This document shows positions 7,488-56,039 of a DNA stretch of 64,000 bases, one piece after another. The position numbers and the translations under genes were made by a program. The notes beneath the pieces are model-generated. The model saw only the letters and a list, made by a program, of their open reading frames with translations, did not search any database and was not told where the DNA came from. Each line of letters begins with the position of its first letter. The first letter of the stretch is position 1. Location of the stretch: NCBI RefSeq assembly GCF_963921235.1, contig NC_086097.1:142664001-142728000 (forward strand), written 5' to 3'. This stretch comes from Mobula hypostoma (Eukaryota).

Positions 7488-8993
7488 TAGAAACATAGAA
7501 ACATAGAAAATAGGTGCAGGAGTAGGCCATTCGGCCCTTCGAGCCTGCACCGCCATTTATTATGATCATGGCTGATCATCCAACTCAGAACCCAGCCTTC
7601 CCTCCATACCCCCTGACCCCTGTAGCCACAAGGGCCATATCTAACTTCCTTTTAAACATAGCTAATGAACTGGCCTCAACAGTTTGCTGTGGCAGAGAAT
7701 TCCACAGATTCACCACTCTCTGTGTGAAGAAGTTTTTCCTAATCTCAGTCCTAAAAGGCTTCCCCTCTATCCTCAAACTGTGACCCCTCGTTCTGGACCT
7801 CCCCAACATCGGGAACAATCTTCCTGCATCTAGCCTGTCCAATCCCTTTAGGATCTTATACGTTTCAATCAGATTCCCCCTCAATCTTCTAAATTCCAAC
7901 GAGTACAAGCCCAGTTCATCCAGTCTTTCTTCATATGAAAGACCTGCCATCCCAGGAATCAATCTGGTGAACCTTCTTTGTACTCCCTCTATGGCAAAGA
8001 TGTCTTTCCTCAGATTAGGGGACCAAAACTGCACACAATACTCCAGGTGTGGTCTCACCAAGGCCTTGTACAACTGCATTAGTACCTCCCTGCTCCTGTA
8101 CTCGAATCCTCTCGCTATAAATGCCAGCATACCGTTCGCCTTTTTCACCGCCTGCTGTACCTGCATGCCCACTTTCAATGACTGGTGTATAATGACACCC
8201 AGGTCTCGTTGCACCTTCCCTTTTCCTAATCGGCCACCATTCAGATAATAATCTGTTTTCCTATTTTTGCCACCAAAGTGGATAACCTCACATTTATCCA
8301 CATTAAATTGCATCTGCCATGAGTTTGCCCACTCACCCAACCTATCCAAGTCACCCTGCATCCTCTTAGCATCCTCCTCACTGCTAACACTGCCACCCAG
8401 CTTCGTGTCATCCGCAAACTTGGAGATGCTGCATTTAATTCCCTCATCCAAGTCATTAATATATATTGTAAACAACTGGGGTCCCAGCACTGAGCCTTGC
8501 GGTACCCCACTAGTCACCGCCTGCCATTCTGAAAAGGTCCCGTTTATTCCCACTCTTTGCTTCCTGTCTGCTAACCAATTCTCCACCCACACCAATACCT
8601 TACCCCCAATACTGTGTGCTTTAAGTTTGCACACTAATCTCCTGTGTGGGACCTTGTCAAAAGCCTTTTGAAAATCCAAATATACCACATCCACTGGTTC
8701 TCCCCTATCCACTCTACTAGTTACATCCTCAAAAAATTCTATGAGATTCGTCAGACATGATTTTCCTTTCACAAATCCATGCTGACTTTGTCCAATCATT
8801 TCACCGCTTTCCAAATGTGCTGATATCACATCCTTGATAACTGACTCCAGCAGTTTCCCCACCACCGACGTTAGGCTAACCGGCCTATAATTCCCCGGTT
8901 TCTCTCTCCCTCCTTTTTTAAAAAGTGGGGTTACATTAGCCACCCTCCAATCCTCAGGAACTAGTCCAGAATCTAACGAGTTTTGAAAAATTT
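7488..8993 (-). mobile_element. CR1-clade LINE, 5'-truncated, uninterrupted 452-aa RT-containing frame
   Basis: ORF 7585..8943 with NYRPVSLTS, YLDFQKAFDKV, GVPQGSVLGP, FADD; (TTTCTATG)n 3' tail at 7488-7510. Confidence 0.95.
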
Positions 8994-9778
8994 GTCTAGG
9001 TCAAGGTCACTGAATTGTGTCAACCTTCCCGTTGACATTAGCTCACACAGGATAGAGAAAAGATCCAAGATCTGTAAAATGTAGACACCAGGACAATTGT
9101 TGGACTGAAATTTTTATTTTCAAAGAAAAAATTAAGATTGGAGAGATTAACTTTTCACTCCTTGCAAACTTCTTAAAAAAAACCCAAGAACAAATGTGTG
9201 ACAAATCTCCCTTGCCAGATTTCATTCTCTAACACCCAGTTCAGATGAAGGCCGTTAGCTAAAATTGTACTGTGTTTTCTTAATCACAGCATTTCCAATT
9301 TTCATCGTTTTCATCCTTTTCAACATTCTCCCGCTGAGTGAAAGACCCTTTGGGTCAGGACCTCAATCTTAACTTATGTATTTGTGTTGAACCACATCTG
9401 TGTATGGAAGTATGCATGTATACAGGAGTGTATAAGTGTGTATTCTTAGGATCGAGAGCCTACCTACGTGTATTTGAAAAGTCGTGGCTCTAAAAACTGT
9501 TGCTGACTTATTTTTTTTTAGATTCAGAACTTGCTGGGTTACCTGTCCAATAGTTTACCATGTTGAGTTTGCTTTTTCTAAACATTTTAATACTGCTAGC
9601 AAGAAGCTTTTATGGTTTCCTGTCACTTATCAGATTCAAATATCCAACTGAATATCAATTGTGACATTCAAATGATCTGCTTGAACCCAGATCAATCCTT
9701 ACCCCTTCTCATTTCAAGGTGGGGATATTGATGCAATTCAATCTGTGATCTTCAAAGATAGAGATGTTACATTAAGTT

Positions 9779-10928
9779 ATAGAAACATAGAAAACCTACA
9801 GCACAAACCAGGTCTTTTGGTCCACAAAGTTGTGCCGATCATGTACTTACATGAGAAATTCCCTAGAGTTACCCATAGCCCTCTATTTTTCTGAGCTCCA
9901 TAAACCTATCCAGGAGTCTCTTGAAAGACCCTATCGTATCTGCCTCCACCACGTCGCCGGCAGCCCATTCCATGCATTCACCACTCTGTGTAAAAAACTT
10001 ACCTCTGACATCTCCTCTGTACTTACTTCCAAGCACCTTAAAACTGTGTCCTCTCGTGCTAGCCATTTCAGCCCTGGGAAAAAGCCTCTGACTGTGCACA
10101 CGATTAATGCCTCTCATCATCTTATACACTTCTATCAGGTCACCTCTCATCCTTCGTCACTCCAAGGAGAAAAGGCCGAGTTCACTCAACCTATTCTCAT
10201 AAGGAATGCTCCCCAATCCAGGCAACATCCTTTTAAATCTCCTCTGCACCCTTTCAATGGTTTCCACATCCTTCCTGGAGTGAGGTGACCAGAACTGAGC
10301 ACAGTACTCCAAGTGGAGCCCGACCAGGGTCCCAAGTTGCTGCAATATTTCCTCTCGGCTCCTAAACTCAATCCCACGATTGATGAAGGCCAATGCACTG
10401 TATGCTTTCTTAACCACAGAGTCAACCTGCGCAGTAGCTTTGAGTGCCCTATGGACTCGGACCCCAAGATCCCTCTGATCCTCCACACGGCCAAGAGTCT
10501 TACCGTTAATACTATATTCTGTCATCATATCTGACTTACCAAAATGAACCACCTCACACTTATCTGGGTTGAACTTCATCTGCCATTTCTCAGTCCGGTT
10601 TTGTATCCTATCAATGTCCCGCTGTAACCTCTGACAGCTCTCCACACTATCCACAACACCTCCAATCTTTGCGTCACCAGCAACTTTACTAACCCATCCC
10701 TCCACTTCTTCATCCAGGTCATTTATAAAAATCATGAAAAGTAGGGGTCCCAGAACAGAACCCTGAGGCACACCACTGGTCACCGACCTCCGTGCAGAAT
10801 ATGACCCATCTACAACCACTCTTTGCCTTCTGTGGGCAAGCCAGTTCTGGATCCACAAAGCAATTTCCCCTTGGATCCCATGCCTCCTTATTTTCTCAAT
10901 AAGCCATGCATGGGGTACCTTGTCAAAT
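9779..10928 (-). mobile_element. CR1-clade LINE 3' fragment, degenerate
   Basis: FDKVPH, GVPQGSVLGPLLF motifs with frameshifts; tttctatg tail at ~9779-9795. Confidence 0.9.
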
Positions 10929-11294
10929 GTTATATACAGACTGCAATTCTGAATATAGTTCAAAATTTGGTATTCTCTGTCAGATTGGTGCACAGAGAAA
11001 GGAGGCACAAAGGAAAGAGCAGGCAGTAGGTTGGAACTGAAGGATGCTGACATAACAAACCAAATTGGTGCAGCAATAGGAAATGAAAGCAGCAAGTGCT
11101 GGAAATATTCAGCAGATCAGGTCACGTCCATGGAGAGATTAAAAACAGAATTAACATTTCAGGGAAATAACCTGTCATCAAACCCTTTCCCCAAAGAAGT
11201 GATTGACCTGCACTGCTGAGCATTTCCATTATTTTCTGCTTTAACCTTAGCTTTCCAGCATGTGCGATATTTTGCTTGTGGCACAGGAATGTAC

Positions 11295-12683: not shown

Positions 12684-15420
12684 TCTTTTTTATTGATTAT
12701 TATTGAGATCAACAAAAAATACATTAAAGTAATCAAGTCAATGAGGTATTAAATTACCAAATAACTAACAAAGCTAAACAATATATCAATAATAATAAGA
12801 AAATAAAGTGTTAAGAATATTCTTTTTTGGAAAAAAGGAGGAAAAAAGAACCCCTACTAACAAAAGAAACCGAAAAGAGAAAAAAAAACCATTGGGAGCA
12901 CAATCCTGGAGCTACACGTCATACAAGCTTCCATAAAAGAAAAACATCAATCCGCCAACACAAATCCATTTAAACAAGAATCAGAAAGAAACCATCTTGA
13001 TTAATTCAAATCAGATTATATTAGTGGGAAGAAGAACCCCACCTTTTCTCAAAGTCAAATTGAGGATCAAAAGTTCGACTTCTGATTTTCTCCAAACTAA
13101 GACACAACATCACCTGAGAGAACCATTGTATCAAAGTGGGAGCAGAGGCATCTTTCCATTTCAATAAAATTGCCCTTCTGGCCAACAATATAACAAATGC
13201 AATTACATGTTGGTCTGATATAGAAATACCATGAATATATTGAGGGATCATACTGAACAAAACTGTCAATTTATTAGGTTGTAAATTGATTTTTAAGGCT
13301 TTAGAAATTGTAGAGAAAATAGATTTTGAAAACTGTTTCAATACAGAACACGACCAAAACATATGTGTCAATGTAGCTGTCTCGGTTTTACATCTACCAC
13401 ACTATCAACATCAGGAAACATTTTAGAAAGTCTCTCCTTTGTCAAATAGTAACAATGTACAATTTTAAATTGAATTAAAGAGTGACTGGCACAAATGGAA
13501 TTAGAGTTAACCAACTTCAAAATTTGCAACCAATCCTCTATTATCAAGGACATGTTAAGCTCTCTTTCCCAATCTTGCTTGATCTTAAGTGAAGGGTAAT
13601 TGTACTGTTATAACAGTAAATGATAAATTTTCCCAATAAAACCTTTCACTAAAGAATTCATTTTTAAAATAATGTCTAACAGGTCAGAATCCTGTATATA
13701 TGGAAAATTACTTAAATATTCTTGTAAGAAATGTCTGACCTGAAGATATTGCAAGAAATGTGAGTACGAGAGAGAGTATTTAGTGACTAATTTCTCAAAA
13801 GACATCAATTGGCTTTCTTGGAACAGATCCATGAAGGAATAGACTCCTTTATTCCTCCAAAGAAAAAAGGTAGGATCACTAAATTTAAGTTTAAATAAAT
13901 AATTTTGATAAATTAAACTAAGAAGGTTAAATTTTTTGAGATTAAAAAAATTACGAAACTGGTACCAAATTCGTAACAATTGCTTAATCACAGGATATAA
14001 ATTTAGATTAGAAATTTTGGCCAGTTGTACAGGTAAAGAAGCTCCTAATAACGAGGTTAAGTAAAATTGTTTCACAGTTCTCAATTCCACATCAACCTAA
14101 GGTGGTCGTTCATTTTTATCAACCCAATTCAACAGGAACACATATAACATATATTAACAGCCCAACAGTAGATTCTTAAATTAGGCAGAGCAAGACCTCT
14201 ATCTTTTAAAAAAAATTTTTGTAAATGATATTTTCCAATTCTTGGTCTTTTATTATTCCAAACAAAAGATGAAATAATAGAATCAACCTGATCAAAACAC
14301 TTCTTAGTTTAAAAAAAAAGGAATATTTTGAAATAGATATAAAAGTTTTGGTAAAATCATCATTTTAACTGCATGAATTCGGCCAGCTAACAAAAGTGTA
14401 AGTGGATTCCATCTACAAAACAATTGCTTCACAAAATCCACAAATTAGCTCTATAAAGGACTCTGTGATTTTTAGTGATAATAATACCCAAATATTTAAA
14501 AGAGTCCGTAACTTTAAAAGGAATGTCATCATATATAAAAGCAGAATCATTTAGAGGAAATAATTCACTTTTATGAAGGTTTAATTTATATCCCGAAAAT
14601 TTTCCAAATTCATTTAATAATTTCAATAAACTAGGAATGGATTCTTCAGGATTCGACACATAAACTAAGATATCATCAGCATAAAGGGAGATCTTATGAA
14701 TAGTCCCATTTATGGAAATTCCATGGATATCCTTAGCTTCACGAAGTGCAATGGCCAAGGGTTCCAACACCAAATTAAATAACAGGAGACTTAACGGACA
14801 TCCTTGTCTCGTACCCCGTGAGAGTCGAAAAAAAGATCTGCAATTATTAGTAATAATAGTAGCAATAGGGCTTTTATATATCATTCTAATCCACTTATTA
14901 AAATTAGTACCATAGTTGAATTTCTCTAAAACGTTAAATAAGTATTTCCATTCAACTCTATCAAATGCCTTTTCAGCATCAAGAGAAACAACACATTGGG
15001 GAGCCTTAGAAAAGGATGAGTAAATAACATTTAACAGTCTCCGAGTATTAGAGAAGGAATAACGGCCCTTTACAAAACCTGTTTGGTCCTCAGAGATAAT
15101 TTTAGCTAGAATATTCTCCAGTCGATTAGCCATTATTTTTGAAAGAATTTTAGCATCCACATTTCAGTCAGTAAGGTCTTTATCTTTCTTAAGAATTAAA
15201 GAAATAGAAGCTTCATAAAATGTGGGAGGTAACTCTCCTATCAAAAAAGAATCTTAGCGTTTCCAACATATATGGAGAAAGCAATTTTTCAAACTTTTTA
15301 TAAAATCCTAAATAACTGTCCAATCCAGGAGCTTTACCAGATTGCATTGAAAGAATAGCTTCCTGAATTTCTTTTTCAGTAACAGGAGTATCAAGTGTTT
15401 GTTGATCTTCAACAGAAATT
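12684..15420 (-). mobile_element. L1-clade LINE ORF2 remnant
   Basis: DAKILSKIMANRL, DQTGFVKGR, DAEKAFDRVEW, RQGCPLS, LYADD, HMFWSC; AT-rich, AATAAA/A-rich 3' end. Confidence 0.9.
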
Positions 15421-27636: not shown

Positions 27637-29409
27637 CAGCGGCATGCAGAAGTTTGGGCACCCCGGTCAAAATTTCTGTTACTGTGAGTAGCTAAGTGAG
27701 TAAAAGATGAACTGATTTCCAAAAGGCATAAAGTTAAAGATGACACATTTCTTTAATATTTTAAGCAAGAGAACTATTTTATTTCCACCTTTTACAGTTT
27801 CAAAATAACAAAAAAGGAAAAGGACCCGAAGCAAAAGTTTGGGCACCCTGCATGGCAGTACTTAGTAACACCCCCTTTGGCAAGTATCACAGCTTGTAAA
27901 CACTTTTTGTACCCAGCTAAGAGTCTTTCAATTCTTGTTTGGGGGATTTTCACCCATTCTTCCTTGCAAAAGGCTTCTAGTTCTGTGAGATTCTTGGGCC
28001 ATCTTGCATGCATTGCTCTTTTGAGGTCTAATCACAGATTCTCGATGATGTTTAGGTCGGGGGACTGTGAGGGCCATGGCAAAACCTTCAGCTTGCGCCT
28101 CTTGAGGTAGTCCAGTGTGGATTTTGAGGTGTGTGTAGGATCATTATCCTGTTGTAGAAGCCATCCTCTTTTCATCTTCGGTTTTTTTTTACAGATGGTG
28201 TGATGTTTGCTTCCAGAATTTGCTGGTATTTAATTGAATTCATTCTTCCCTCTACCAGTACACGTTCCCCGTGCCACTGGCTGCAACACAAGCCCAAAGC
28301 ATGATCGATCCACCCCCATGCTTAACAGTTGGAGAGGGGTTCTTTTCATGAAATACTGCACCCTTTTTTCTCCAAACATACGTTTGCTCATTGCAGCCAA
28401 AAAGTTCTATTCAAAAGTCAGTGGTGGAGGCAGCTACACTAGTGAAGTTTAAGAGACTACTAGACAGGTATATGGAGGAGTTATATGGGAGGCAGGGTTT
28501 GAGGGTCGGCACAACATTGTGGGCCGAAGGGCCTGTACTGTGCTGTACTATTCTATGTTCTATGTTCTAAAAGGTTCAAAGGACCATCTAAACAAGCCTG
28601 ATGCATTTTGGAAACAAGTCCTGTGGACTGATGAAGTTAAAATAGAACTTTTTGGCCGCAATGAGCAAAGGTATGTTTGGAGAAAAAAAAGTGCAGACTT
28701 TCATGAAAAGAACCCCTCTCCAACTGTTAAGCACGGGGGTGGATCATGCTTTGGGCTTGTGTTGCAGCCAGTGGCACGGGGAACATTTACTGGTAGAGGG
28801 AAGAATGAATTCAATTAAATACCAGCAAATTCTGGAAGCAAACATCACACCGTCTGTAAAAAAGCCAAAGATGAAAAGAGGATGGCTTCTACAACAGGAT
28901 AATGAACCTAAACACACCTCAAAATCCACAATGGACTACCTCAAGAGGCGCAAGCTGAAGATTTTGCCATGGCCCTCACAGTCCCCTGACCTAAGTATCA
29001 TCGAGAATCTGTGGATAGACCTCAAGAGCAATGCATGCAAGACGGCCCAAGCAACTCACAGAACTAGAAGCCTTTTGCAAGGAAAAATGGGTGAAAATCC
29101 CCCTAACAAGAATTGAAAGACTCTTAGCTGGGTACAAAAAGTGTTTACAAGCTGTGATACTTGCCAAAGGGGGTGTTACTAAGTACCGCCATGCAGGGTG
29201 CCCAAACTTTTGCTTCGGGCCCTTTTCCTTTTTTGGTATTTTTGAAACTGTAAAAGATGGAAATAAAAAAGTTTTCTTGTTTAAAATAGTAAAGAAATGT
29301 GTCATCTTTAACTTTATGCCTTTTGGAAATCAGTTCATCTTTTACTCACTTAACTATTCACAGTAACAGAAATTTTGACCAGGGGTGCCCAAACTTTTGC
29401 ATGCCACTG
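27637..29409. mobile_element. Tc1-family fold-back element (two inverted 3' halves) with central CR1 tail
   Basis: TA-cagcggcatgcagaagtttgggcacc ... ggtgcccaaacttttgcatgccactg-[31 protein letters not shown] motifs on + and their mirror on -. Confidence 0.92.
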
Positions 29410-45036: not shown

Positions 45037-47375
45037 CTGTGAAAGAAATTAGCTCACTTAAAGATTGGGAAAGGCAATTAACAAACCTGGCTAGGCTACA
45101 CAAATACCTCTTAACTTTGACAATACTACCCAAAGATAAAGGAAGTAATGAAAATCACTGTGAGCAAGAACTCTCCAAACTCAGTTCACATTGCTCTAGA
45201 CTCTCCTTTGATTTTAAGGACCATAATTACACTAGATCCTCAATCTCCTAATTCAAAGGATAAGTCAACGTTCCTTTCGGACTTCTCGGTAGAAGTCTGA
45301 AGATAACAAAACAACAATAGCACCAAGTATGATGTAAATTTACCTTTTCATGGCCTTAAGCATCAATGAATAGTCTCAGGTTCTTTCAAAGACGTTATAG
45401 TGCCAACAGTCGTGAAAAATGGCTGGCCTTGATGGAACATAGGGCAAGCCAAATATTGCAAAAACAGAAATTATTGTAAATATATTAGGATTAGCATCCA
45501 TGATCAGAAAATATGTTATCGATTCTCATCTTCACGTCCTCAGTTAATTGTTCCAAATTATTTCCAGCATAATCTATTTTTAATCCAAGGTTACAGGTCC
45601 CTTCTTTATTAGCAAACAGTTGCTCAATCTCCCTAAGTCTCGCCATTGGTAAAAACATATTCAATGTGCTCCATCCATTAATTCTACTTCTTTCCACAAT
45701 ATCTTCCAGTTTTTTGCTTTATTTCCACTGATCATTCCTGTATTTAACTTTTTCTCATCCCTCTTTCACATTACTAAAACTTCCTGAGCTATACACATAA
45801 GATGCTCTGGATTCCAGCATCTGCAGAACATCTGGTGTTAGTAAACATTCTGCTTAGTTTGCATAGATCGTGTTGAGAATTCTTTCTATTAGCCACTCTC
45901 AACAAGACTCTAAAACTCCTTTCTTGTAATCTGTTTCTCCTCTAGCATCTCTCTCTCTTCTTCCCCCAATTCACCACACATCAGCCAGTCTCTCATTTTC
46001 ACACATCTCCTTATTGATGTACGTACTTGCTCTGTATGCCCTTGTCTGTATCTTTCTTATTCAAGCTCCACTCTTGCATGTATGGTCTTTTCTTAATTAG
46101 CTCATTGGAAACTCTTCAAGGCAATAAAAATCAGATCCTGGGGACAAAATTTAATAGCTCTGGCAATTTTTTTTAAAAACACTATTGTAACTTAGGACCT
46201 TACTTAGAAAACCTAAAATACAAGATTGAAGCTGTTGAAAGGCTGATGTACTGCCAAAACTTTTGACTCTTAAAGGCCATGGTGAAATCAAGCCAAGCCA
46301 AATCATAATTTCATCCTCTCCAAAATGACTGAGTTAGGAAACCCAAGGACAAGAAACTTAAGTTAAGCTGAAATAAGGAAAGTGAACTGCTGTTCTAAAC
46401 TACACAATGGAAAACTAACACAAGATATACTTGTTGTCAGCCTGGCTGAATGGTAGCATTCAACACTCTTTCTCATGGCTGCAGGTTTATTCTCCAGTCC
46501 AAAGAATTAAGCATACCCAGTCTAGGCTAACAGTATCATATGGTGTAGAGGAGTGCAGAATTTCTCTTAATTTCCTCAAATTCCTTCATCATTTAAACTA
46601 GCTTAAACTTCTAAACTCAAGAAAATACAAGTCTGCAATCTGTCCCCTTTTTATTTCCTGGTACCATTTTGGTAAATCTCTGCTGTACTGCTTCCTGAAG
46701 ACTGGTGTCCTGACTACATTGAAAACAACAAAATCTGCAGGTTGTGTAGACTAAAACCAGGAAAAAAGATCAAAATGATCAAGTTTTTGTTTCTTTTTGA
46801 GAAGTGCAATTTTATCACTATATTGGTGATGAAATTTATACAGTTTTATTTTTCATCAGCTGATGTGGTACCAGGCTCACCCAATCTGATTTAAATATGA
46901 CTCCAAACCCTCCAATGCTATTGACTCTTAACAGCCATTTCTGTAAAGAAGCCATTAGGAATGGACAAAACAAAATGCGGGTATTGCCCGTGACATCCAC
47001 ACTGCATCAATGAATAAAAAAATTCTCAAGTCTCTAATTCTTTTGCCAATAATCCTAAATCTATTTCTTCTAATTAGCACATTTCCTTTCAAACTCCTTT
47101 TATGATTACAACTGGTTTTATTACATCTTTTGTTAAAGCTCCTCTGCTTTCAAGTAAACAATTCCAGTTTTTCTAGTTCTTCCTTAAAAATGAAATCTCT
47201 CAGGCCTGGCGTTATTCTGGCAGATCTCCCTTGGATTTTCTTTCCTTCTAAAAATTGGTTCAAAGTCTAGCATTAAACACAATCCTTAAGTGACTTAGGG
47301 TTTGGCAAAACCTCCATTTAAACCTTGGGTTAAAGTTTAGTTAAATAATAAATAACATTAATGCTCAAAAATTAC

Positions 47376-50300
47376 CTTTCTGTCAGGTACAAGTTTTCTT
47401 CAATTAACTCAAAGTAAGGTGGCATCATTCCTAATTTTGATTGCTCCTTCCACCACTGAGAGTTTTTGAATTCCTCCATTTTACACACAACACTGACCCA
47501 TTCTTTGGATGGCACTGTGACCAATGGATCAGGCTCAATACGGACTTGCTCACAATACCGTGTGTCGGCATCACTTTCCAAATCAGTGTCCACCTCCTCC
47601 ACCTGTGGCTTCTGGGAGTATCCTTGTTCATCGTCCAACTTCTTTTCTAATTCTCTGACCCTTGACTCTTTATCTGCTGTAGAGTCGCTGGCCTTGAGTA
47701 CCAGAGTGGTCCCCTTAGTAGAGTTACTGGTTATTTCGTGAGCCTGCAGAGAGCTCACACCTTTGGGAACAGATCGTGGGTCACGGTTGACTGTTTCCCA
47801 GTTGTCATAGCTTGCAAAGTCATCGGTCATTGAATCGGGTTGTACCTGTCCTTGAACATCCGAGCCAGAAATATCTTGACACAACTGATAGTTATTGCAC
47901 ATGACTGATTTAGCATTTAGTTTGGGATCCCAACTGGCTCTTTTATCTTGCCAGTGATCACCCGTTTTGCCTAACTCTGCTTCCTCTGTTTGATAGCAAT
48001 ACTTCCTGTATAATCCATAGCTGCTATCTGGTTGCTGACAACTGCTACTAGGTTTTTCTGGCTGAGAGAAATCCCAGTCAAGGCTTTCCAAATATTCTGG
48101 GCTATGAAAAGATCCTTGATCTTGGGTCAGCTGCTGAGGCCAAGAGACAGCCTGTCTACTATCTGGCTTTTCTCCAAAGCTTTTATCTTCCCCATGAAGT
48201 GTCTGAGCACTGTTTTGTTGGGCTGTTAGACTGTCCAAGTGACTACTAGGTGAGTGCTGGTACCTTTCTGCTATTCCTTCTGAACCTGGTGATTCCACTG
48301 AGCCAGATTTTTCATTTGACAGAGGGAGCTGATTTTGGTCAATTGAAAACCTCTCAGGCTGACTGGTGCTATCCGCCTTGTCGGTCAACAACTGCTGCTT
48401 GTAGCTCTTGTGACTCTCACTAACAGGCGAAAGCTGACTTGAAGAAGCTTGTGGTTGGTCCTCTAATACTTCTTGGAATAAAGAGTGGGTACCCTGAACT
48501 GTGTCAGTGCCCTCAACAGGGTCACCAACCATCTCCCGGGGGATATTTCCAAGCTCCACACCATTTGGCTGATGCACCGCACTGGGTTTCTCATCTGTTT
48601 CTCGCTTGCTGCCTTCAACAGCTGAATGCTTCTTTTCTTGCTGACTTATTCTAGAAGATGATATGGAAGATGAAGGAGATGACATTGGACTCTTCTCCTC
48701 CAAAGTCAGGGTAGAATTCTTTGGCACTATCACTACAGACTGCAAACGGTTCTTTGGGACACTACCATCATCAGAATCTGAGCTGGTTTCACTTTCTTCA
48801 CTCTCTTGTTCACTGCTGCTCTTAGCATCCTCAGAACAATCTCCATTTTCAGAGCTCACGCTGTTGTATTCGACCTTCATACAGCTACTGTCACAGTCAG
48901 ACTTAGTTCTATAAGTCAGTGAATTGTGTGCCACTTCATTTGTGCTTGTCAGGTTGGCAGAGCTCAAATGCAGTGGACCTTCCGTGACGACCTCCATTGT
49001 TAACTCTTCATCAGTTCCTTCATCTTCGGAAATTTCCATTCTCTGCTCTGGCTCCACTTTAACAGAACTATCGGGTCTGGCAATGAAAGAGGTTTCTTCA
49101 TTATTTGAAGATGGTGTTTCAGTCTTCACTGCTCCAGACTCCTTAGCTTCTGAATCAATGTGACTTGGCAAATCCACGTACAATCTAACTTTATCAACTG
49201 AATCCCAACTTTGGTTGCTAGGTGTTGCATTCTGTTTAATGCTGTAACTGCTAAAGCTATTTGCATTGTGAAACAGTTTATTATTCTTCAGTTCAGACCT
49301 ATTTCCTTCATTGGCATGTTGTTCCTTCTGACTATCTACAGCCCTATTTTCTGTTGACTCTTTGCCTGTGAGCTTTACATCTCTCATGCAACTTTCAGGG
49401 TCTGCTGAAATGGTCACTGTTTCATCCAAATTTGAGCGAGACACAGCTGTGAACTCATCCATTTTGGGATAGGCCAAAATGTGTTCTCTCTTGGTGTAGT
49501 GTGAAGTGTTGTATTCCTCCACTTTTTGGTAGGCCAAGTACTTGACCTCATCTGGGCTGGGATAAGGTGAAGCTTGCATGGTATTCACTATGAAATGAGG
49601 TGGGGACTGCAAGTCAATTGGTAAGTCATGAGATGAAACCATCAAATTAGCCTCACACTGAGATGAAGCTCTATGTTCTTCATCCGATTCTGAACAAGAT
49701 GAAACTTTTGCCAAAAGTCCATCTAACTTGGAACTATGTGATGAGCCAGCTATTTCAGAGGGCCTGGAGAGACAACATGTCCTTGATAAATCTGATGTGG
49801 GATACGGTGAGGTGCTTACACAACTGTCTGATTGGTGATCAAGGGAGGAATAAATATCATCTGATCTAAAAACATTTTGTTTTGTCCCTGAATTGTGTAG
49901 TTCAGGAACCTCTCTCATTTCATCTTCTGACTCAGAGGATGAAATCCTTCTCAATTCTCTATCAGGTGAAAAAACTGGCAAACTCCTTATCTTTTGGAAC
50001 CTGGAACTCGAAACATTTATTCTTGACTTGCGGTCTACTCTACTATTTTCCCAAAGGTCTACTTCTGTTTCTGGTTCAGAAGATTCCACTTTACTTAAGC
50101 AAGCATATGAGTTAGAGTGAGATGGGGCTACTATTGAGTGCTTATCTGACCCACTGTTAGTCTGCGAATCTAGTTCTACTCCTGCAGGATCCATTTTAAC
50201 TACTTCTACACCACAAAAGGTTTTCGCTTTAGTACGAGATCGTGTCACTATTACATTCTTGTCTGATGTACTATTAGTCCATGAATCCAATTCTGGTTCA

Positions 50301-52066
50301 GAGGAGTCCATTCTAACAGCCTTTGTTTGATGACAATTAGTTGATTTGGAGTTCTGTGGAGATATCTGTGAATTAATATCTGGTTTGAGATTTCTCCTAG
50401 AATCAGGTTCTAACTCTGAAGAATCACCCTGAGCTCCTTCTATTTCACAATAAACAAGTGTCTTAGAATGAGATGGAATTGTCTTTGAGTTACTGTCCAG
50501 CTTAGAGCATTTTCTCAAGTCAATTTCTGGTCCTGGGGAGTTCTTCTTTAATAAAACTTCATGGCAAGAGATTACAGATTTGGAATGAGATGAAACCATC
50601 CTCAAATGACTATCAGATTTGGAGATTTTCCCGTAGTCTAATTCCAGATCAGATACATTAATTCTGGCTGCCTCAGGTTTATGACAGGAAGTTGATGACT
50701 TTGAATGACATATTTTTGAATGACAGTCAGATTTGGACAATTTTCTAGAATCTAGTCCTACTTCGGAGGAATTAGCTTTAGAACTTTCTGATTCAAAACA
50801 AGATGCTGGTATCCTGGATATTTTATCTGTTTTAGAATGAGATTTAGTCCTTTTAATTTCTCTTTCTGATTCAGAGCAGGAGGAAGTTGCTCTCAGATCT
50901 CTATCTGACCGTGACTGGTATTTTCTTGAATCTCTATAGGATTTAGAATGTAATGAAGTCCTTCTTACGTCATTTGACCTAGGATGATATCTTCTAGAAT
51001 CTTCTTCAGAATCAGAACAAGAGGAAGCATCTCTTAAATCAGCACACAATTTGCTACGGGAAGATTTGCTCCTTTCTGAGTAAGGAGAACCTCTACGATA
51101 TCTGTCTTTATCAGAATAATAAGAGCTCCTTGACCAGTCTGACTTTGAGTATGAAGAAGGTGCCCTTGAATCTCTATCAGAGCGAGATCGAGATGAACTG
51201 AGTCTTTCTTCCCTTCCATACTTTGAGTGAGATGAAGTCTTCCTTGCATCGCGATCAGATTTTGAACGGCCACTGCCCCTTCTATCTCGTTCAGATTTGG
51301 AATGGGAAGAAACCTTTTCCACCTCATCAGTTCTGGAAGCTGTTGGATATTTCTTAACTTCCCGACTGGATTCAGCATTCTTGGTGTCATGCGACTTCAA
51401 ACTAGGAGATTTCCTTACTAAGTCAATCTCAGACTCAGAGTCAGCAGATAGTGCTTGCACAAAATCTTCTGTCCGAGCAAGTTTCCTAAGCTCATCATTT
51501 TCAGAAGACAAAGAGACATTCTTGAATTCTTCTATGTTATCATCTTTCCCAACATGGGATGTACCAAGATTCAGATTTGTTGGTTTAGTTTCAACAGTCA
51601 CCTTTATCACAGTTTCAGTTCCTCCTGCAGAAAGTTTCTTGACGGCAGCGTCCACAGGTTCCTCCACTGATGAACTACACTGTTCCCTGTCTGACAAACT
51701 TAGAGGTTTGGCTGCATCATTCAGTTGCTTCTTCTTGAAATGCACTTTGCTCCACTCGACCTTTGATTTCGGTGGTGACGACTTTGCTGCCTCCGGAGCA
51801 TCAGCTGTTTCCGAATCACTTTTATTCTCCTGGTTCCCTTTCACAGAAATCAGCGGCAATGCTGTTGGCAGAGTTTTGACCTCGTCTAGCTCAGACCCAA
51901 TGGCACTTTGGAACCTATTCCGTAAGGTCTTTGTTACATTGAAGGTAAAAGACACCTTCTGACGTCCTTGGTCCTCAAGATTGACCTTTGCCTTGGTGCC
52001 CTTTGGTAGAAAGCGACTGCAGCCTTTCGATGCTTGACCCTTGGGAAAATTCAACACTGCTTTGAC
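47376..52066 (-). CDS. SETD2: SETD2 exon 3 (4691 nt; N-terminal disordered region to ...EENLYLTER)
   Basis: 1566-aa ORF 47372..52072; acceptor ccgttgcag|GTC (phase 0), donor GAAAG|gtaat; contains SRFLPKGTK, SDSDDGSVPKNRLQSVVIVPKNSTL, PPYFELIEENLYLTER. Confidence 0.95.
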
Positions 52067-53836
52067 CTGCAACGGTATTGGGGATACTTCAGGTACAGTT
52101 CTGCAACATCACATACATTTCATTACAAATAAAATCTCAAAGAAATGGCAACTGCAGCAACAATTCCTTAAATCAGAAACAATCTAGAAATTGAAGTTAG
52201 GTCACAAAAGTCCTCAAGTATGTTCTGCCATAACCTTCATGAACTTCATGAATCTTAAAATCTTTGATTTTTAAAAGTTTATCAATATAAAACTTGAAAA
52301 TAACAACTCATCAAAGAAATGTCACCTGTGGAAGAATGGTTCAAATTTATATCCACATCTGCTTGACGAAGCATTACCTCAATTCATCCCCGAAACATTT
52401 GGATCTAATCTATCGGCTATTGCACTCATCATAAACTCCAGTCCTCTCTGACTACACTACCAGTTTTCTGTAAATGCCCTGAAAACTTTGGAATATTTGT
52501 GTATCACTCCCTCATAATTTAACTCCTGGGAGTTCAGGTTTCATTCGGTTTCACCTGAATGAACTTACAACAAGAATACACAGGTCTGAATATGACTATG
52601 GGCGGAAATAAGGAGAGAAAGGAGGTACTACACTGGTGATCTTCTTCAAAAAAATGGCTGAACAAATAAGTACTAGCAGCAGATACCAGAGTATCAAAAC
52701 CTATCCTATCCATACTAAAGAATATCTATTATTTAAAAAACAGCAGAAAACACTCAGTTGATAAATAAGATTATAACCAATGTGCCAGTGCAGAAGATAT
52801 GCTGCGGCATGTGGAATCCACAGATCAATGACAATAGCTATATCTTGGTTTCTGTGGCTTGAGGAAATTTTGCTCAGTTTCACGAGGTAAGTTTTAAAAA
52901 GTCAAGGGAAAAAGGGAATAAAAAAAGGTGTGGTGGCAATACAAATATTGATATGCGTGTGACAGTAAAGGGACATGGAGGAAAAAAATAAGAGTGCAAC
53001 AATAAATTCAAAATGGGAGCATTCGAGAATACATGACACTTTAAATGGTGCCAGGATAGCAATGCTAATGGTTGATGAGGTAATAGTGAGAAACGACCTC
53101 GGTTTCAAAGATCAAGGCACAAAATTGGTTTGGATGGAGTTAAAAATAACAGCAAGAGAAACAAGTTATTAGTGGGAATGGTCTAAAGGCCCTCAAACAG
53201 GATAAAATGTTAATCAAATAATAATGGGAGGGAATAAAAAGGCTTTTTTAAAAAATCGGAGTCCTAGAACACAACAGCATGAAAACAGTCCTTCCTGCCC
53301 ATCAAATCTTTGCCAAACCATTAATCTGCCAAGTCCCATTGACCTGCACCCGGACCATTACCCTCCATAACCCTCGTATCCATGTACCTTACCCCACACA
53401 AAACCATTTTGACTATCTCTAATCAGGTCCTTTCTATTCAAATACTTCTATATCTGGTCCCTTCGAATACCTTCCAATAACTTTCCCACTACTGATGTCA
53501 GTTTCATTGGCTGAGAATTTCATGCCTTATTCTTAGAGCTTTTCTTAAACAAGGGAACAACATTAGCTATCCTCCAATCCCCGGCACTTCACCCGTGGCT
53601 AAGGTTGTTATAAGCATCTCTGCTAGGGCTCCTGCAATTTCTACACTAACTACCCCCCCCCCCCCGCCCACAGGGTTTGAGGGAACACCTTGTCAGGCCC
53701 TGGGAACTTATCCACTCTAATTTGCCTCAAGACAGGAAACCCATCCTTCTCTGTAATCTGTACAGGGTCCATAACCTTGCTGCTGGAATGCCTCACATTT
53801 ATAGACTCCGTGTCCATTTATTTATGCGGGGTATAT

Positions 53837-54021
53837 GGGGTGTCAGGGAGGGGTAGCACCTCTGTTGGGGGAACATGTCGCGTCCTTTTCAGGGCGGTTA
53901 GTCCACCTTTGGTCCCCACCTGGCACTCAGCTCTCACCTGTGGCTCCCCGTAGCTGTTTGCATGCGACAGCGGCCACACCCCGGGCAACGGCTTCGACAA
54001 CCCGGCTAAACCAGGTGAGGG
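53837..54021 (+). ncRNA. predicted HDV-like self-cleaving ribozyme
   Basis: P1 GGGGUGU(53837-43)/ACACCCC(53976-82); P2 CUCUCACCUG(53931-40)/CAGGUGAGGG(54012-21); P3 GGC/GCC; L3 starts UCCCC; GGGCAAC after P1; P4 hairpin; GGCUAA with putative catalytic C54006. Confidence 0.75.
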
Positions 54022-54393
54022 TAGCCGACGGGTCTCAAACCCTTGGTGAGATAGGGAGTTGTCTATCCCAGCATGTGAAGACAGACTCCGGCGGATTGAG
54101 CGGACGAGACCAATGGAAGGTCCAACGGTCAAGAAGGCAGTCTCTGCAAGCGTCGTGGAACTTGTAGAGCAGGACAAGACACAGAAGACGTCCTGGTCAT
54201 CCACTGCGCCTAGTCCCTTCTCCAGCCGTCTAGACTCTGTCTTGCCACTGGATCCAGATGGGAATTGGGAAAAGAGAGTGAGGCTGACGCTGCGCAACTC
54301 TCCCTCACTTAAATCCAAATCACGCGCTAGTCTCGACACCATCATTATGGTGTCGAGGTCCTCATCGACGTCAACGATGGACGAACAACAACA
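53837..54393 (+). mobile_element. non-autonomous retroelement (probably RTE-clade derived) with 5' HDV-like ribozyme
   Basis: GC/CpG-rich insert interrupting a CR1; no credible ORF; 3' hairpin 54332-54357 and (CAA)n tail. Confidence 0.75.
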
Positions 54394-56039
54394 AATACAG
54401 ATGCAAAAATCCATTTAAGGTCTCGTGTATCTCTTGGCTCCATGCATAGATTACCACTCTGATCTTCTAGCGAACCAATTTTGAACCTTGCTATCCTTTT
54501 GCTCTAAAATATACGTGTAGAAGCCCTCAGGATTATCCTTCAGGTTGTCTACTGGACCACCTTAATGCCTTCTTTTAGCCTTGCTGATTTCCTTAAGTGT
54601 GCTCTTGCATTTCTTATGCTCTTTAAGAACCAGATTAGTTTCTGCCTGCCTATACCTGCTATGAACCTCTTTCTTTTTCTTAACCAGAGCCTCAATATCT
54701 CTCAGAAATCAAGGCTCCCCAAACCGGTTATCATTGCTTTTATTCCGACAGGAACATACAAATTCTGTACTCTCAAATTTTCACTTTTAAAGGCCTCCCA
54801 CTTACCAAGTACACCTTTGTCAGAAAATAACCTGTCCCAATCCACACTTACGAGATCATTTCTGATAACATCAAAATTGACCTTTCTCCAATTTAGAATC
54901 TCAATCTGAGGACCAAAACTATTCCTTTCTATAATTATCTTGAAACTAATGGCATTATGATCACTAGATGCAATGCATTCCCCTATAAAAATTTCTCTCA
55001 CCTGCCTTGTGTCATTTCCTAATCTAGTGTCACTCTCTCTCTTGTTGGACTTCTATGTACTGATTAAGAAAATTTTCCTGAACACATTTGACAAACTCTT
55101 TCTCATACAGCCCTTTTATAGTATGGGAGTCTCAGTTAATATGTGAAAAGTTAAAATCACCCACTAACACAACCTTATTTTTCTTGCAGTCTACTATTCC
55201 TATACAAATTTGCTCCTCTAAATCCCGTGGACTATTGGGTGGTCTATAATATCCCATTAATGTGGTTATACCTTTCTTATTTCTCGTTCTACCCATACGT
55301 CTGCACTAGACAAGCCCTCCGGTATCCTGAATGAGCACTACCGTGACATTTTCCTGACTAGTAATGGCACTCCTCTCTCTTTAATCGTTCTTGCTCTATC
55401 ATGCAGAAAACAATGAAACCCCAGAATATTGAGTTGCAAGTCCTGCCCCGCTGCCAGCAAGTCTCACTAATGGCTACAATGTCATAATTCCACATACTGA
55501 TCCATGCTCTAAGCTCATCTGCCTTTTCTACAATACTGCTTTCATTGAAATAAACACAGCTCAGAACATTAGTCCCAACTCAGCATATTCAACCTTTTGA
55601 TTCCTGACTTTGTGTGTAAGCTTAAGAATATCTTTCCCCACAACCACTGTCCTGGTGCTCTGGTTTCCATCTCCTTGAAACTCCAGTTTAAACTGCACCC
55701 CCCTCCCCCACCATGTAGCACTAGCAAACCCTTTTACTAGGATGTTAGTCTCCCCCTACCCCAGTTCAGGTGCAAACTGTCCCTTCTGTACAGGTCCCAC
55801 TTTCCCTAGATGAGAGGCCAATGATCCAAATATCTGATGCTCTCCTTCCTGTATCAATTCCTTAGCAAAGTGTTAAACTGTATGATCTTCCTACTTCTGG
55901 CCTCACCAGCATATGGCACAAGTAGCAATTCTGAGATCACAACCTTGGAGGTCCTGTCCTTTAGCTTAGCACCTAACTCTCTGAACTCACTTTGCAGGAC
56001 TCTGTCACCCATCCAACCCATGTCATGGCAGCTTTCATC

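Follow-up and report, generated by a model that had tools for sequence, protein, structure and literature searches.

A predicted HDV-like ribozyme with an extra L3 hairpin at the 5′ end of an RTE LINE and of its bipartite, non-coding derivative

INTRODUCTION

Non-LTR elements headed by HDV-like ribozymes are described in the accessible text on R2 (PMC3774820) and L1Tc (PMC3185411), and for RTE and baggins such ribozymes have been reported or predicted (Ruminski et al. 2011, as cited in the available parts of PMC5786205 and PMC6765202). The candidate ribozyme analyzed here has in common with these systems a nested double pseudoknot whose first G lies at the 5′ junction of the element, a long J1/2, a putative catalytic C in J4/2, and genomic copies with small, variable 5′ deletions. 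It differs from them in a hairpin that follows the L3 core within a 28-nt L3, in having another G-rich strand 9 nt downstream of P1, in its host, which is probably cartilaginous-fish-like as judged by repeat content, and in being a predicted ribozyme that is known from sequence.

The second feature of the locus, a two-part build, is also known from RTE elements. ORF-less bipartite RTE LINEs include RTESINE1/2, WALLSI3, and Bov-A according to the accessible portions of PMC5786205 and PMC7245038, and bipartite derivatives made by RTE, Ingi, Vingi, and R2 are named in those of the former. Like RTESINE1/2, WALLSI3, and Bov-A, the element studied here joins an RTE 5′ end and 5′UTR to a short 3′ tail by internal deletion, and it has no ORF, no tRNA head, and a microsatellite end; its UTR resembles by eye those of RTE-1_PSi and RTE-3_AMi, as far as these are given in the available pages of PMC5786205. 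It differs from them in that a predicted ribozyme is retained and has been mapped, and in a pairing between the two parts that goes unmentioned in the accessible text on those families.

Non-autonomous elements that combine a 5′ HDV-like ribozyme with the 3′ end of a parent are described in the available text on the Drosophila R2 SIDEs (PMC3414825) and on trypanosome NARTc/RIME. Those belong to other LINE clades, and the SIDEs are site specific in rDNA, whereas the element described here is dispersed in more than 1,700 copies with variable target duplications. A self-cleaving ribozyme also starts an APE-endonuclease RTE in Perere-3 (RTE clade, Schistosoma mansoni), where the accessible text of PMC8501958 describes twister T-variants; that ribozyme is of another class, and its activity has been demonstrated, in contrast to the predicted activity here. 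Literature searches that combined cartilaginous fish, RTE, and ribozyme found no report, and no paper was found on the element family. Ribozyme-headed RTEs and bipartite RTE derivatives are thus both already published, and the locus is a further example. New here, at the level of sequence comparison, are a probable L3-hairpin variant of the HDV fold and a lead on a helix between UTR and tail.

RESULTS

A dispersed bipartite element with a sharp 5′ end

The whole stretch of 64,000 nt of Mobula hypostoma DNA that was analyzed, hereafter the window, had been proposed to contain an HDV-like fold heading a non-coding retroelement. This proposal is supported, and the element can now be described as a bipartite, non-coding RTE derivative, in which an RTE 5′ end and 5′UTR are fused to an RTE 3′ tail (Table 1). 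When positions 53780-54430 were used as the query, the best 40 of 3,796 candidates in the 3.48-Gb genome aligned from about query 36-56 to 610-626 at 96-98% identity and covered about query 49-615. An exact core pattern gave at least 1,717 matches in the genome, against 0 for the reversed-pattern control, and a second exact pattern occurred 1,141 times. The copies have in common the sequence from G53828 through to an (AAC)n terminus at 54394. Among 20 copies taken in coordinate order, 17 start at element position 1-4 and the other three at 10, 27, and 34; L042 is the coordinate-order copy beginning at the equivalent of G53837.

Flank repeats of at least 7 nt were present in 24/30 copies versus 65/870 mismatched pairs, as expected of target duplications, which are variable. 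The window copy shows no clean target duplication, the 8-nt match at this place belonging to the flanking repeat. It was inserted in an older repeat, of which an uninterrupted relative lies at 16865-16627 (78% identity). Other repeats in the window, at 7585-9000, 10157-11116, 14429-15163, and 28646-29116, we take to be a fragment of a Tc1-like transposase and RT fragments of CR1-like and L1-like type.

Within the element, no sense frame of at least 150 codons was found, and ARAGORN returned 0 genes, i.e., no tRNA-like head as in tRNA-derived (Pol III) SINEs; the head is the parent LINE's own 5′ end. The tail is also 85% like the end of another RTE family. Viral contigs gave no match to the element by DNA pattern or by protein. 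A stop-free minus-strand frame of 198 codons spans window positions 53818-54414, across the element and both of its boundaries, and is probably due to chance. Two of the 20 coordinate-order copies (L043:980-1125 and L049:961-1110) have in common an insert of ~145 nt, placed at the junction hairpin between 5′UTR part and tail, which has a tRNA-SINE-like look and marks a subfamily. Four of 24 listed sequencing runs were compared with the element; they consisted of contigs or DNA, in which no molecule ends were seen. In runs X11, X15, and X19 (window positions 53500-54700), the element family is present in contigs whose source organisms have other codes. X15 carries a CC-to-AA change at 53948-49 in the L3 core at about a third of depth, a variant with 0 genomic matches in the single context tried, and X19 carries P4 changes that preserve pairing.

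Table 1. Positions of the element, its predicted ribozyme, and the neighboring host exon in the window
Feature	Position	Strand	Basis
Whole non-autonomous element, 567 bp	53828..54394	+	Genomic matches, common sequence edges, parent LINE L041
P1 5′ strand, GGGGUAU here; predicted cleavage 5′ of G53828	53828..53834	+	Copy starts, L086 compensatory pair, energy
96-nt J1/2 insertion with a closing helix of 10 bp (53838-53847/53919-53928)	53835..53930	+	MFE folds
P2 5′ strand, CUCUCACCUG, starting at 53931	53931..53941	+	10/10 pairs kept in 3 sequences
P3, GGC (53942-44)/GCC (53973-75), enclosing the 28-nt L3	53942..53975	+	Descriptor, energy, alignment
L3 core UCCCCGUA, then extra hairpin (53953-53971, 5-6 bp)	53945-52, 53953-53971	+	Hairpin conserved in L086
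P1 3′ strand ACACCCC (53976-82) and GG (53983-84; P1.1 partner of C53946-C53947)	53976..53984	+	
J1.1/4, P4 hairpin (53989-54004), J4/2 with putative catalytic C54006, P2 3′ strand CAGGUGAGGG (54012-54021)	53985..54021	+	
RTE 5′UTR body	54022..54346	+	Continuous with parent L041
Junction hairpin, 54330-54342 (5′UTR) pairing with 54347-54359 (tail)	54330..54359	+	Compared with L041 5′UTR and L085 3′ end
RTE 3′ tail, (AAC)n end	54347..54394	+	Matches 3′ end of parent L041/L085
Large exon of SETD2 host gene	47372..52108	-	SETD2 chains matched by its final 70 residues (E 7e-10)

The parent LINE and other RTE families

One of the 20 coordinate-order copies, L041, is a LINE that is 95% identical to element positions 3-524 and then continues through a longer 5′UTR into broken frames that match an endonuclease (E 4e-4, endonuclease-like) and RVT_1 (E 1.6e-24). 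It ends ~4 kb later in an element-like tail, its own last bases being eroded, and 39 further copies span the L041 5′UTR and ORF start at 87-92%. By this comparison, the element combines ~520 nt from the start of the parent with ~50 nt from its end, linked through an internal deletion. The probable placement of the parent in the RTE clade rests on a single APE-RT layout, the type of tail, the C-terminal CxxC-HxxxH of its relatives, and the likeness by eye to RTE-1_PSi and RTE-3_AMi. L086, a full RTE from another organism, is one of 42 metagenome loci that contain a related RT and is 77% identical to element positions 3-517.

A sister RTE family (L083) has an open frame of 1,129 codons. Window positions 54059-54337 are 75% identical to its 5′UTR (E 2e-49), the shared sequence running from element position 232 onwards. 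L083 was rejected as the parent, since the identity is only 75% and the head is different. The 5′ ends of this family are ragged, 26 other matches beginning anywhere from 178 to 474, and it gave no descriptor match in the 1.9 kb read. Ragged ends in a sister without a descriptor match fit a ribozyme that sets the sharp end of the element, although the length of the head differs too. The G+C-rich head of the sister family (L084:396-710, L083:1-350; G000:C50:39668750-39670650) contains a glyoxalase-family coding stretch (Glyoxalase_4, E 7e-12), which presumably resembles methylmalonyl-CoA epimerase. It may represent a host-gene capture that replaced the ribozyme head, and it is partly common to the 26 other matches.

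A search with DUF6451 found other RTE families; 1/30 loci matched the element, via the tail of an unrelated neighboring RTE. One family has an uninterrupted RTE-type frame of 1,018 codons (L081:657-3713; G000:C36:131598600-131603600, minus strand) with APE, RVT_1, DUF6451, and a (GAA)n tail. It was rejected as a relative, since neither a significant similarity to the element nor a descriptor match was obtained.

The predicted ribozyme fold

The first 194 nt of the element are predicted to fold as an HDV-like nested double pseudoknot with an extra hairpin, and all of its parts were found. The motifs named in the original prediction lie where they had been placed, namely, GGGGUGU at 53837, CUCUCACCUG at 53931, UCCCC at 53945, ACACCCC at 53976, GGGCAAC at 53983, GGCUAA at 54004 (with C54006), and CAGGUGAGGG at 54012. 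We take GGGCAAC and GGCUAA to be the junction sequences of the HDV genomic and antigenomic ribozymes, respectively. In HDV-like ribozymes, the L3 U, the two P1.1 bases, and a downstream G keep a usual spacing, and U53945, C53946, C53947, and G53950 show it as well. The L3 core pattern is intact in 24/30 nearest copies and in 15/20 coordinate-order copies. C54006 is followed by a conserved A in J4/2 and, together with P1.1, P2, and P3, is invariant among three aligned sequences; it occupies the same place in L090, another RTE locus with an HDV-type fold. P1, beginning at the post-cut G, comprises 6-7 bp, with 7/7 pairs in G6 copies and L086 and 6/7 in the window copy. U53941 may pair with A54010, which would leave one C bulged, and 86.7% of cells in the J1/2 helix are paired across the three aligned sequences. 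Covariation amounts to one P1 double change among the three sequences, a level reached by 148/500 shuffles and not significant alone, plus one C-G to A-U swap in P2 of L090, seen by eye.

An HDV-type descriptor in which an L3 hairpin is allowed found one core in the 64-kb window, both strands included. On dinucleotide shuffles of 198 nt, any match was obtained in 1/3000 and a perfect-P1 match in 0/3000, which overstates the rarity of the fold because the descriptor was hand-written after this sequence had been seen. A search with HDV-like models had been suggested as a check, and the success of the hand-written descriptor was not repeated with Rfam, which yielded 0 matches in the window at gathering level and, with the E cutoff relaxed to 10, a single weak match that is unrelated. 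The long J1/2 and the L3 insert would be expected to defeat the Rfam models. Comparison of nested MFE with shuffles gave no signal (z = 0.12 for the 198 nt and -1.55 in a further run); nested folding cannot score a pseudoknot.

The P1 register and the predicted cut site

Two candidate P1 5′ strands lie 9 nt apart, at 53828 and 53837. In the original prediction, P1 was formed by GGGGUGU at 53837 and ACACCCC, and RNA cleavage was placed 5′ of G53837. Both strands are present, but the register is off by 9 nt: copy boundaries, covariation, and energy favor P1 at G53828, to which the copies extend. With P1 at 53828, J1/2 would be 96 nt instead of ~87 nt, and the predicted cut, which had been expected within ~20 nt of the element boundary and is indeed near it, falls exactly on it. 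The 5′ ends of other copies had been expected to cluster near G53837. They form a sharp cluster at G53828 instead, which fits self-cleavage better than the claimed distance of ~20 nt.

Copy boundaries were assessed on 1,684 matches anchored on G53837 (control, 29). Among the first 100, counted by eye and including the window copy as one row, the 9-nt leader was present with at most one mismatch in 76 and with at most two mismatches in 84, and a start at G53837 fits 5. G1 follows a T in 14 of the first 24 perfect-leader rows, an A in 7, a G in 2, and a C in 1, also read by eye. In two copies, L030 and one row of the 100, the leader is partly repeated upstream. The 39 long parent copies align from query 25-35 in 20 cases (G1 = query 29), from 36-54 in none, and from 55-250 in 19. 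Ten of the 39 begin at query 87-99 (the equivalent of L041:529-545), inside J1/2, which may reflect a hot spot of truncation at a hairpin or a subfamily whose J1/2 differs.

The G1 register is lower in energy in 4/4 sequences, by 6.0 (window), 12.2 (L035), 16.1 (L036), and 22.2 (L086) kcal/mol, as calculated for the nested part only. In this register, the originally proposed strand pairs within J1/2 (53838-47 with 53919-28), and the first strand GGGGUGU, seen in most copies, pairs 7/7. P1 in L086 reads GUGGUGU/ACACCAC, where U-A replaces G-C at pair 2 and 7/7 pairs are retained, versus 3/7 in the register at 53837. Although not significant with three sequences, this double change separates the two registers. 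A minor cut at +9 may occur, most so in the window copy, where the energy gap is smallest.

An extra hairpin in L3

HDV-like ribozymes have a short, unstructured L3 of 7-8 nt. The L3 of 28 nt with a hairpin lacks this feature, and the predicted ribozyme is therefore classed as an HDV variant. The extra hairpin had been called atypical from the outset; it is present here, conserved in L086, and absent from L090. In L086, the stem of the hairpin is kept, its loop is different, and one core base is changed. L090 has a homologous P2 upstream of its ORF, with a P3 of 4 bp and an L3 of 7 nt without a hairpin (by eye), on a contig that lacks the P1 5′ strand. A complete standard HDV-type fold with a 7-nt L3 was found in L125, likewise upstream of its ORF; at L125:100-170, a flanking (GT)n run offers six registers, each of which could provide the P1 5′ strand. 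From these comparisons, the hairpin looks inserted into a normal RTE ribozyme and was kept while P1 covaried, which argues that it is tolerated. A literature search for L3 insertions in HDV-like ribozymes found no report of a tolerated insert.

A loose version of the descriptor missed L086 because of a P2 bulge. Its matches in L095, L103, and L104 are low-complexity sequence and were taken as chance. At L091:350-450, decayed P2, P3, and an L3-hairpin-like stretch can be recognized, but no catalytic C aligns, and the locus was not counted as a ribozyme homologue; its hairpin base shows a G-C to A-U change.

The window copy and the host gene

The window contains exons of the SETD2 gene on the minus strand. 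The element lies ~1.7 kb upstream of the acceptor of the large SETD2 exon, an acceptor-like AG being present near 52103, and on the opposite strand. Its location in an intron is only inferred, since the upstream SETD2 exon was not located in the window. Because the element is antisense to SETD2, the host pre-mRNA does not contain the ribozyme strand and cannot be cut by this copy.

In the window copy, the P1 5′ strand GGGGUAU replaces the GGGGUGU of most copies, giving an A-C mismatch at the sixth of the 7 pairs. This A, at 53833, is characteristic of a subfamily that includes 20/30 nearest copies and 9 of the 100 leader rows. The C-C mismatch predicted in P4 is present, but it is private to this copy: C54001 breaks P4, and G occupies this position in 27/30 nearest copies. 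T53865 is private as well. According to the accessible text of PMC3774820, a single mismatch in P1 goes along with little or no cleavage, yet about a quarter of R2 ribozymes have 1-2 mismatches at the top of P1. With its P1 A-C and P4 mismatches and its antisense position in SETD2, the window copy is probably passive, weakly active or inactive.

A predicted helix between 5′UTR and 3′ tail

The junction hairpin is a 13-bp helix of 11 Watson-Crick and 2 G-U pairs, with the deletion junction placed in or beside its 4-nt loop; in the full LINE the same two strands are ~3.5 kb apart. The pairing was tested in six element pairs with 22-nt segments at the same conserved anchors, which were picked after inspecting the sequences. 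The cognate duplex was reached by 0 of 2000 shuffles for the window (where the segments overlap), 74 for L041 (decayed), 51 for the sister family (from two different copies), 0 for L086, 2 for L090, and 0 for L091. The best partner came from the own family in 5/6 rows, the best partner for the sister being L086, with a nearly identical segment. The segments are of four unlike sequence types in which complementarity is kept. In a whole-UTR duplex-energy scan, the helix is not significant, 80, 159, 140, and 183 of 200 shuffles reaching the four cognate values. An unanchored helix scan placed the best helix at the predicted site in 3/7 (6, 29, and 2 of 150 shuffles) and elsewhere in 4/7.

The same anchors with complementary segments can be recognized by eye in RTE-1_PSi, RTE-3_AMi, and WALLSI1, 1A, and 2 on the available supplement pages of PMC5786205, where RTE-1_PSi and RTE-3_AMi differ by one U-A/A-U swap and the SINE junctions fall in the loop; other RTE groups on these pages have different ends. 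A local 3′ hairpin is described for plant RTEs in the accessible text of PMC6007223. Pairing between UTR and tail is not mentioned in the available portions of PMC5786205, PMC7245038, PMC6007223, and 10.1101/2022.11.04.512097, and a literature search, with subscription papers outside its reach, found no report of it in RTEs.

DISCUSSION

We consider it likely that an HDV-type ribozyme sets the 5′ end of the RTE LINE and of its deleted derivative. The model is built on the observed structure elements, copy boundaries, parent LINE, and target duplications and on one compensatory change each in P1 and P2; cleavage, the source of transcription, and mobilization in trans are what we infer. A transcript would read into a source copy, and its first 194 nt would fold through P1 (53828-34/53976-82), P1.1, P2, P3, and P4, with C54006 in place. 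The RNA would then cut itself 5′ of G53828, thereby fixing the 5′ end of the element. The RTE protein of the parent LINE would bind the 3′ tail, nick A+T-rich DNA, and reverse-transcribe the RNA in place; the product would be a copy of 567 bp that ends in (AAC)n and is flanked by a target duplication of short and variable length. The extra hairpin after the catalytic L3 core would be tolerated, and the duplicated G-rich strand at +9 would normally be held by the J1/2 helix. Several findings speak against this reading: the subfamily with the A-C mismatch in P1 spread regardless, almost half of the long parent copies (19/39) start well inside, at query 55-250, the 28-nt L3 is longer than in established HDV-like ribozymes, the covariation comes from few sequences and is not significant alone, Rfam gave no match, and the window copy has no clean target duplication.

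The sharp 5′ end could instead be the transcription start of an internal promoter, the HDV-type fold being a relic disabled by the L3 insert or serving in RNA stability or translation. An L3 far longer than in known members and the spread of the P1-mismatch subfamily would agree with such a promoter, as would L1Tc/NARTc, in which the promoter lies within the same 77 nt as the ribozyme according to the accessible text of PMC3383444. This explanation is nevertheless unlikely, as it does not account for the double change that restores P1 in L086, a sequence that also has the L3 hairpin, or for the invariance of P1.1, P2, P3, and C54006 in the three aligned sequences. Furthermore, a copied cap can leave an extra G at the 5′ junction, and no extra G precedes G1.

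That P1 is mainly formed by GGGGUGU at 53837, with cleavage 5′ of G53837, is very improbable. It would give the window copy a perfect 7-bp P1 versus one mismatch at G1, and the start of L042 and 5/100 rows fit it and may reflect a minor site; however, 76/100 copies reach 9 nt further, only 3/7 pairs form in L086, the J1/2 helix is lost at a cost of 6-22 kcal/mol, and the 5 rows are also explicable by ordinary truncation or by a 2% pattern background. We attach next to no weight to a chance arrangement in a G+C-rich 5′UTR. The nested MFE z of 0.12, the lack of an Rfam match, and a descriptor tailored to the sequence would allow for it, but a single core in 128 kb of strand sequence, the match rate of 1/3000 in shuffles, a first base that coincides with the element boundary, the compensatory changes in P1 and P2, and the occurrence of HDV-type folds in L090 and L125 at the corresponding position all argue against coincidence.

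The conserved L3 hairpin would extend the range of the HDV fold, and ribozymes of this kind would escape searches restricted to a short L3; close natural controls without the L3 insert are provided by L090 and L125. For the junction helix, two readings remain: it may be part of the RT-binding site, or it may merely join the ends and guide the deletion. Since the helix is conserved in full-length LINEs, a function is favored. We tentatively propose, at a confidence that falls somewhat short of an even balance, that the RNA of this RTE subgroup folds back so that the 5′UTR-tail helix across ~3.5 kb forms part of the site the RT needs, and that, together with an active, hairpin-tolerant ribozyme, it makes up the minimal template. 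If so, the minimal RTE template would consist of a self-cut 5′ end, the UTR body, the fold-back helix, and the tail, and the fold-back helix would explain why short RTE elements keep both ends of the LINE, with the junction in the helix loop. The position of the junction in the loop of a base-paired stem may also explain the rise of two-part elements, and the 5′UTR-tail helix would bear on the design of templates for RTE-based gene insertion.
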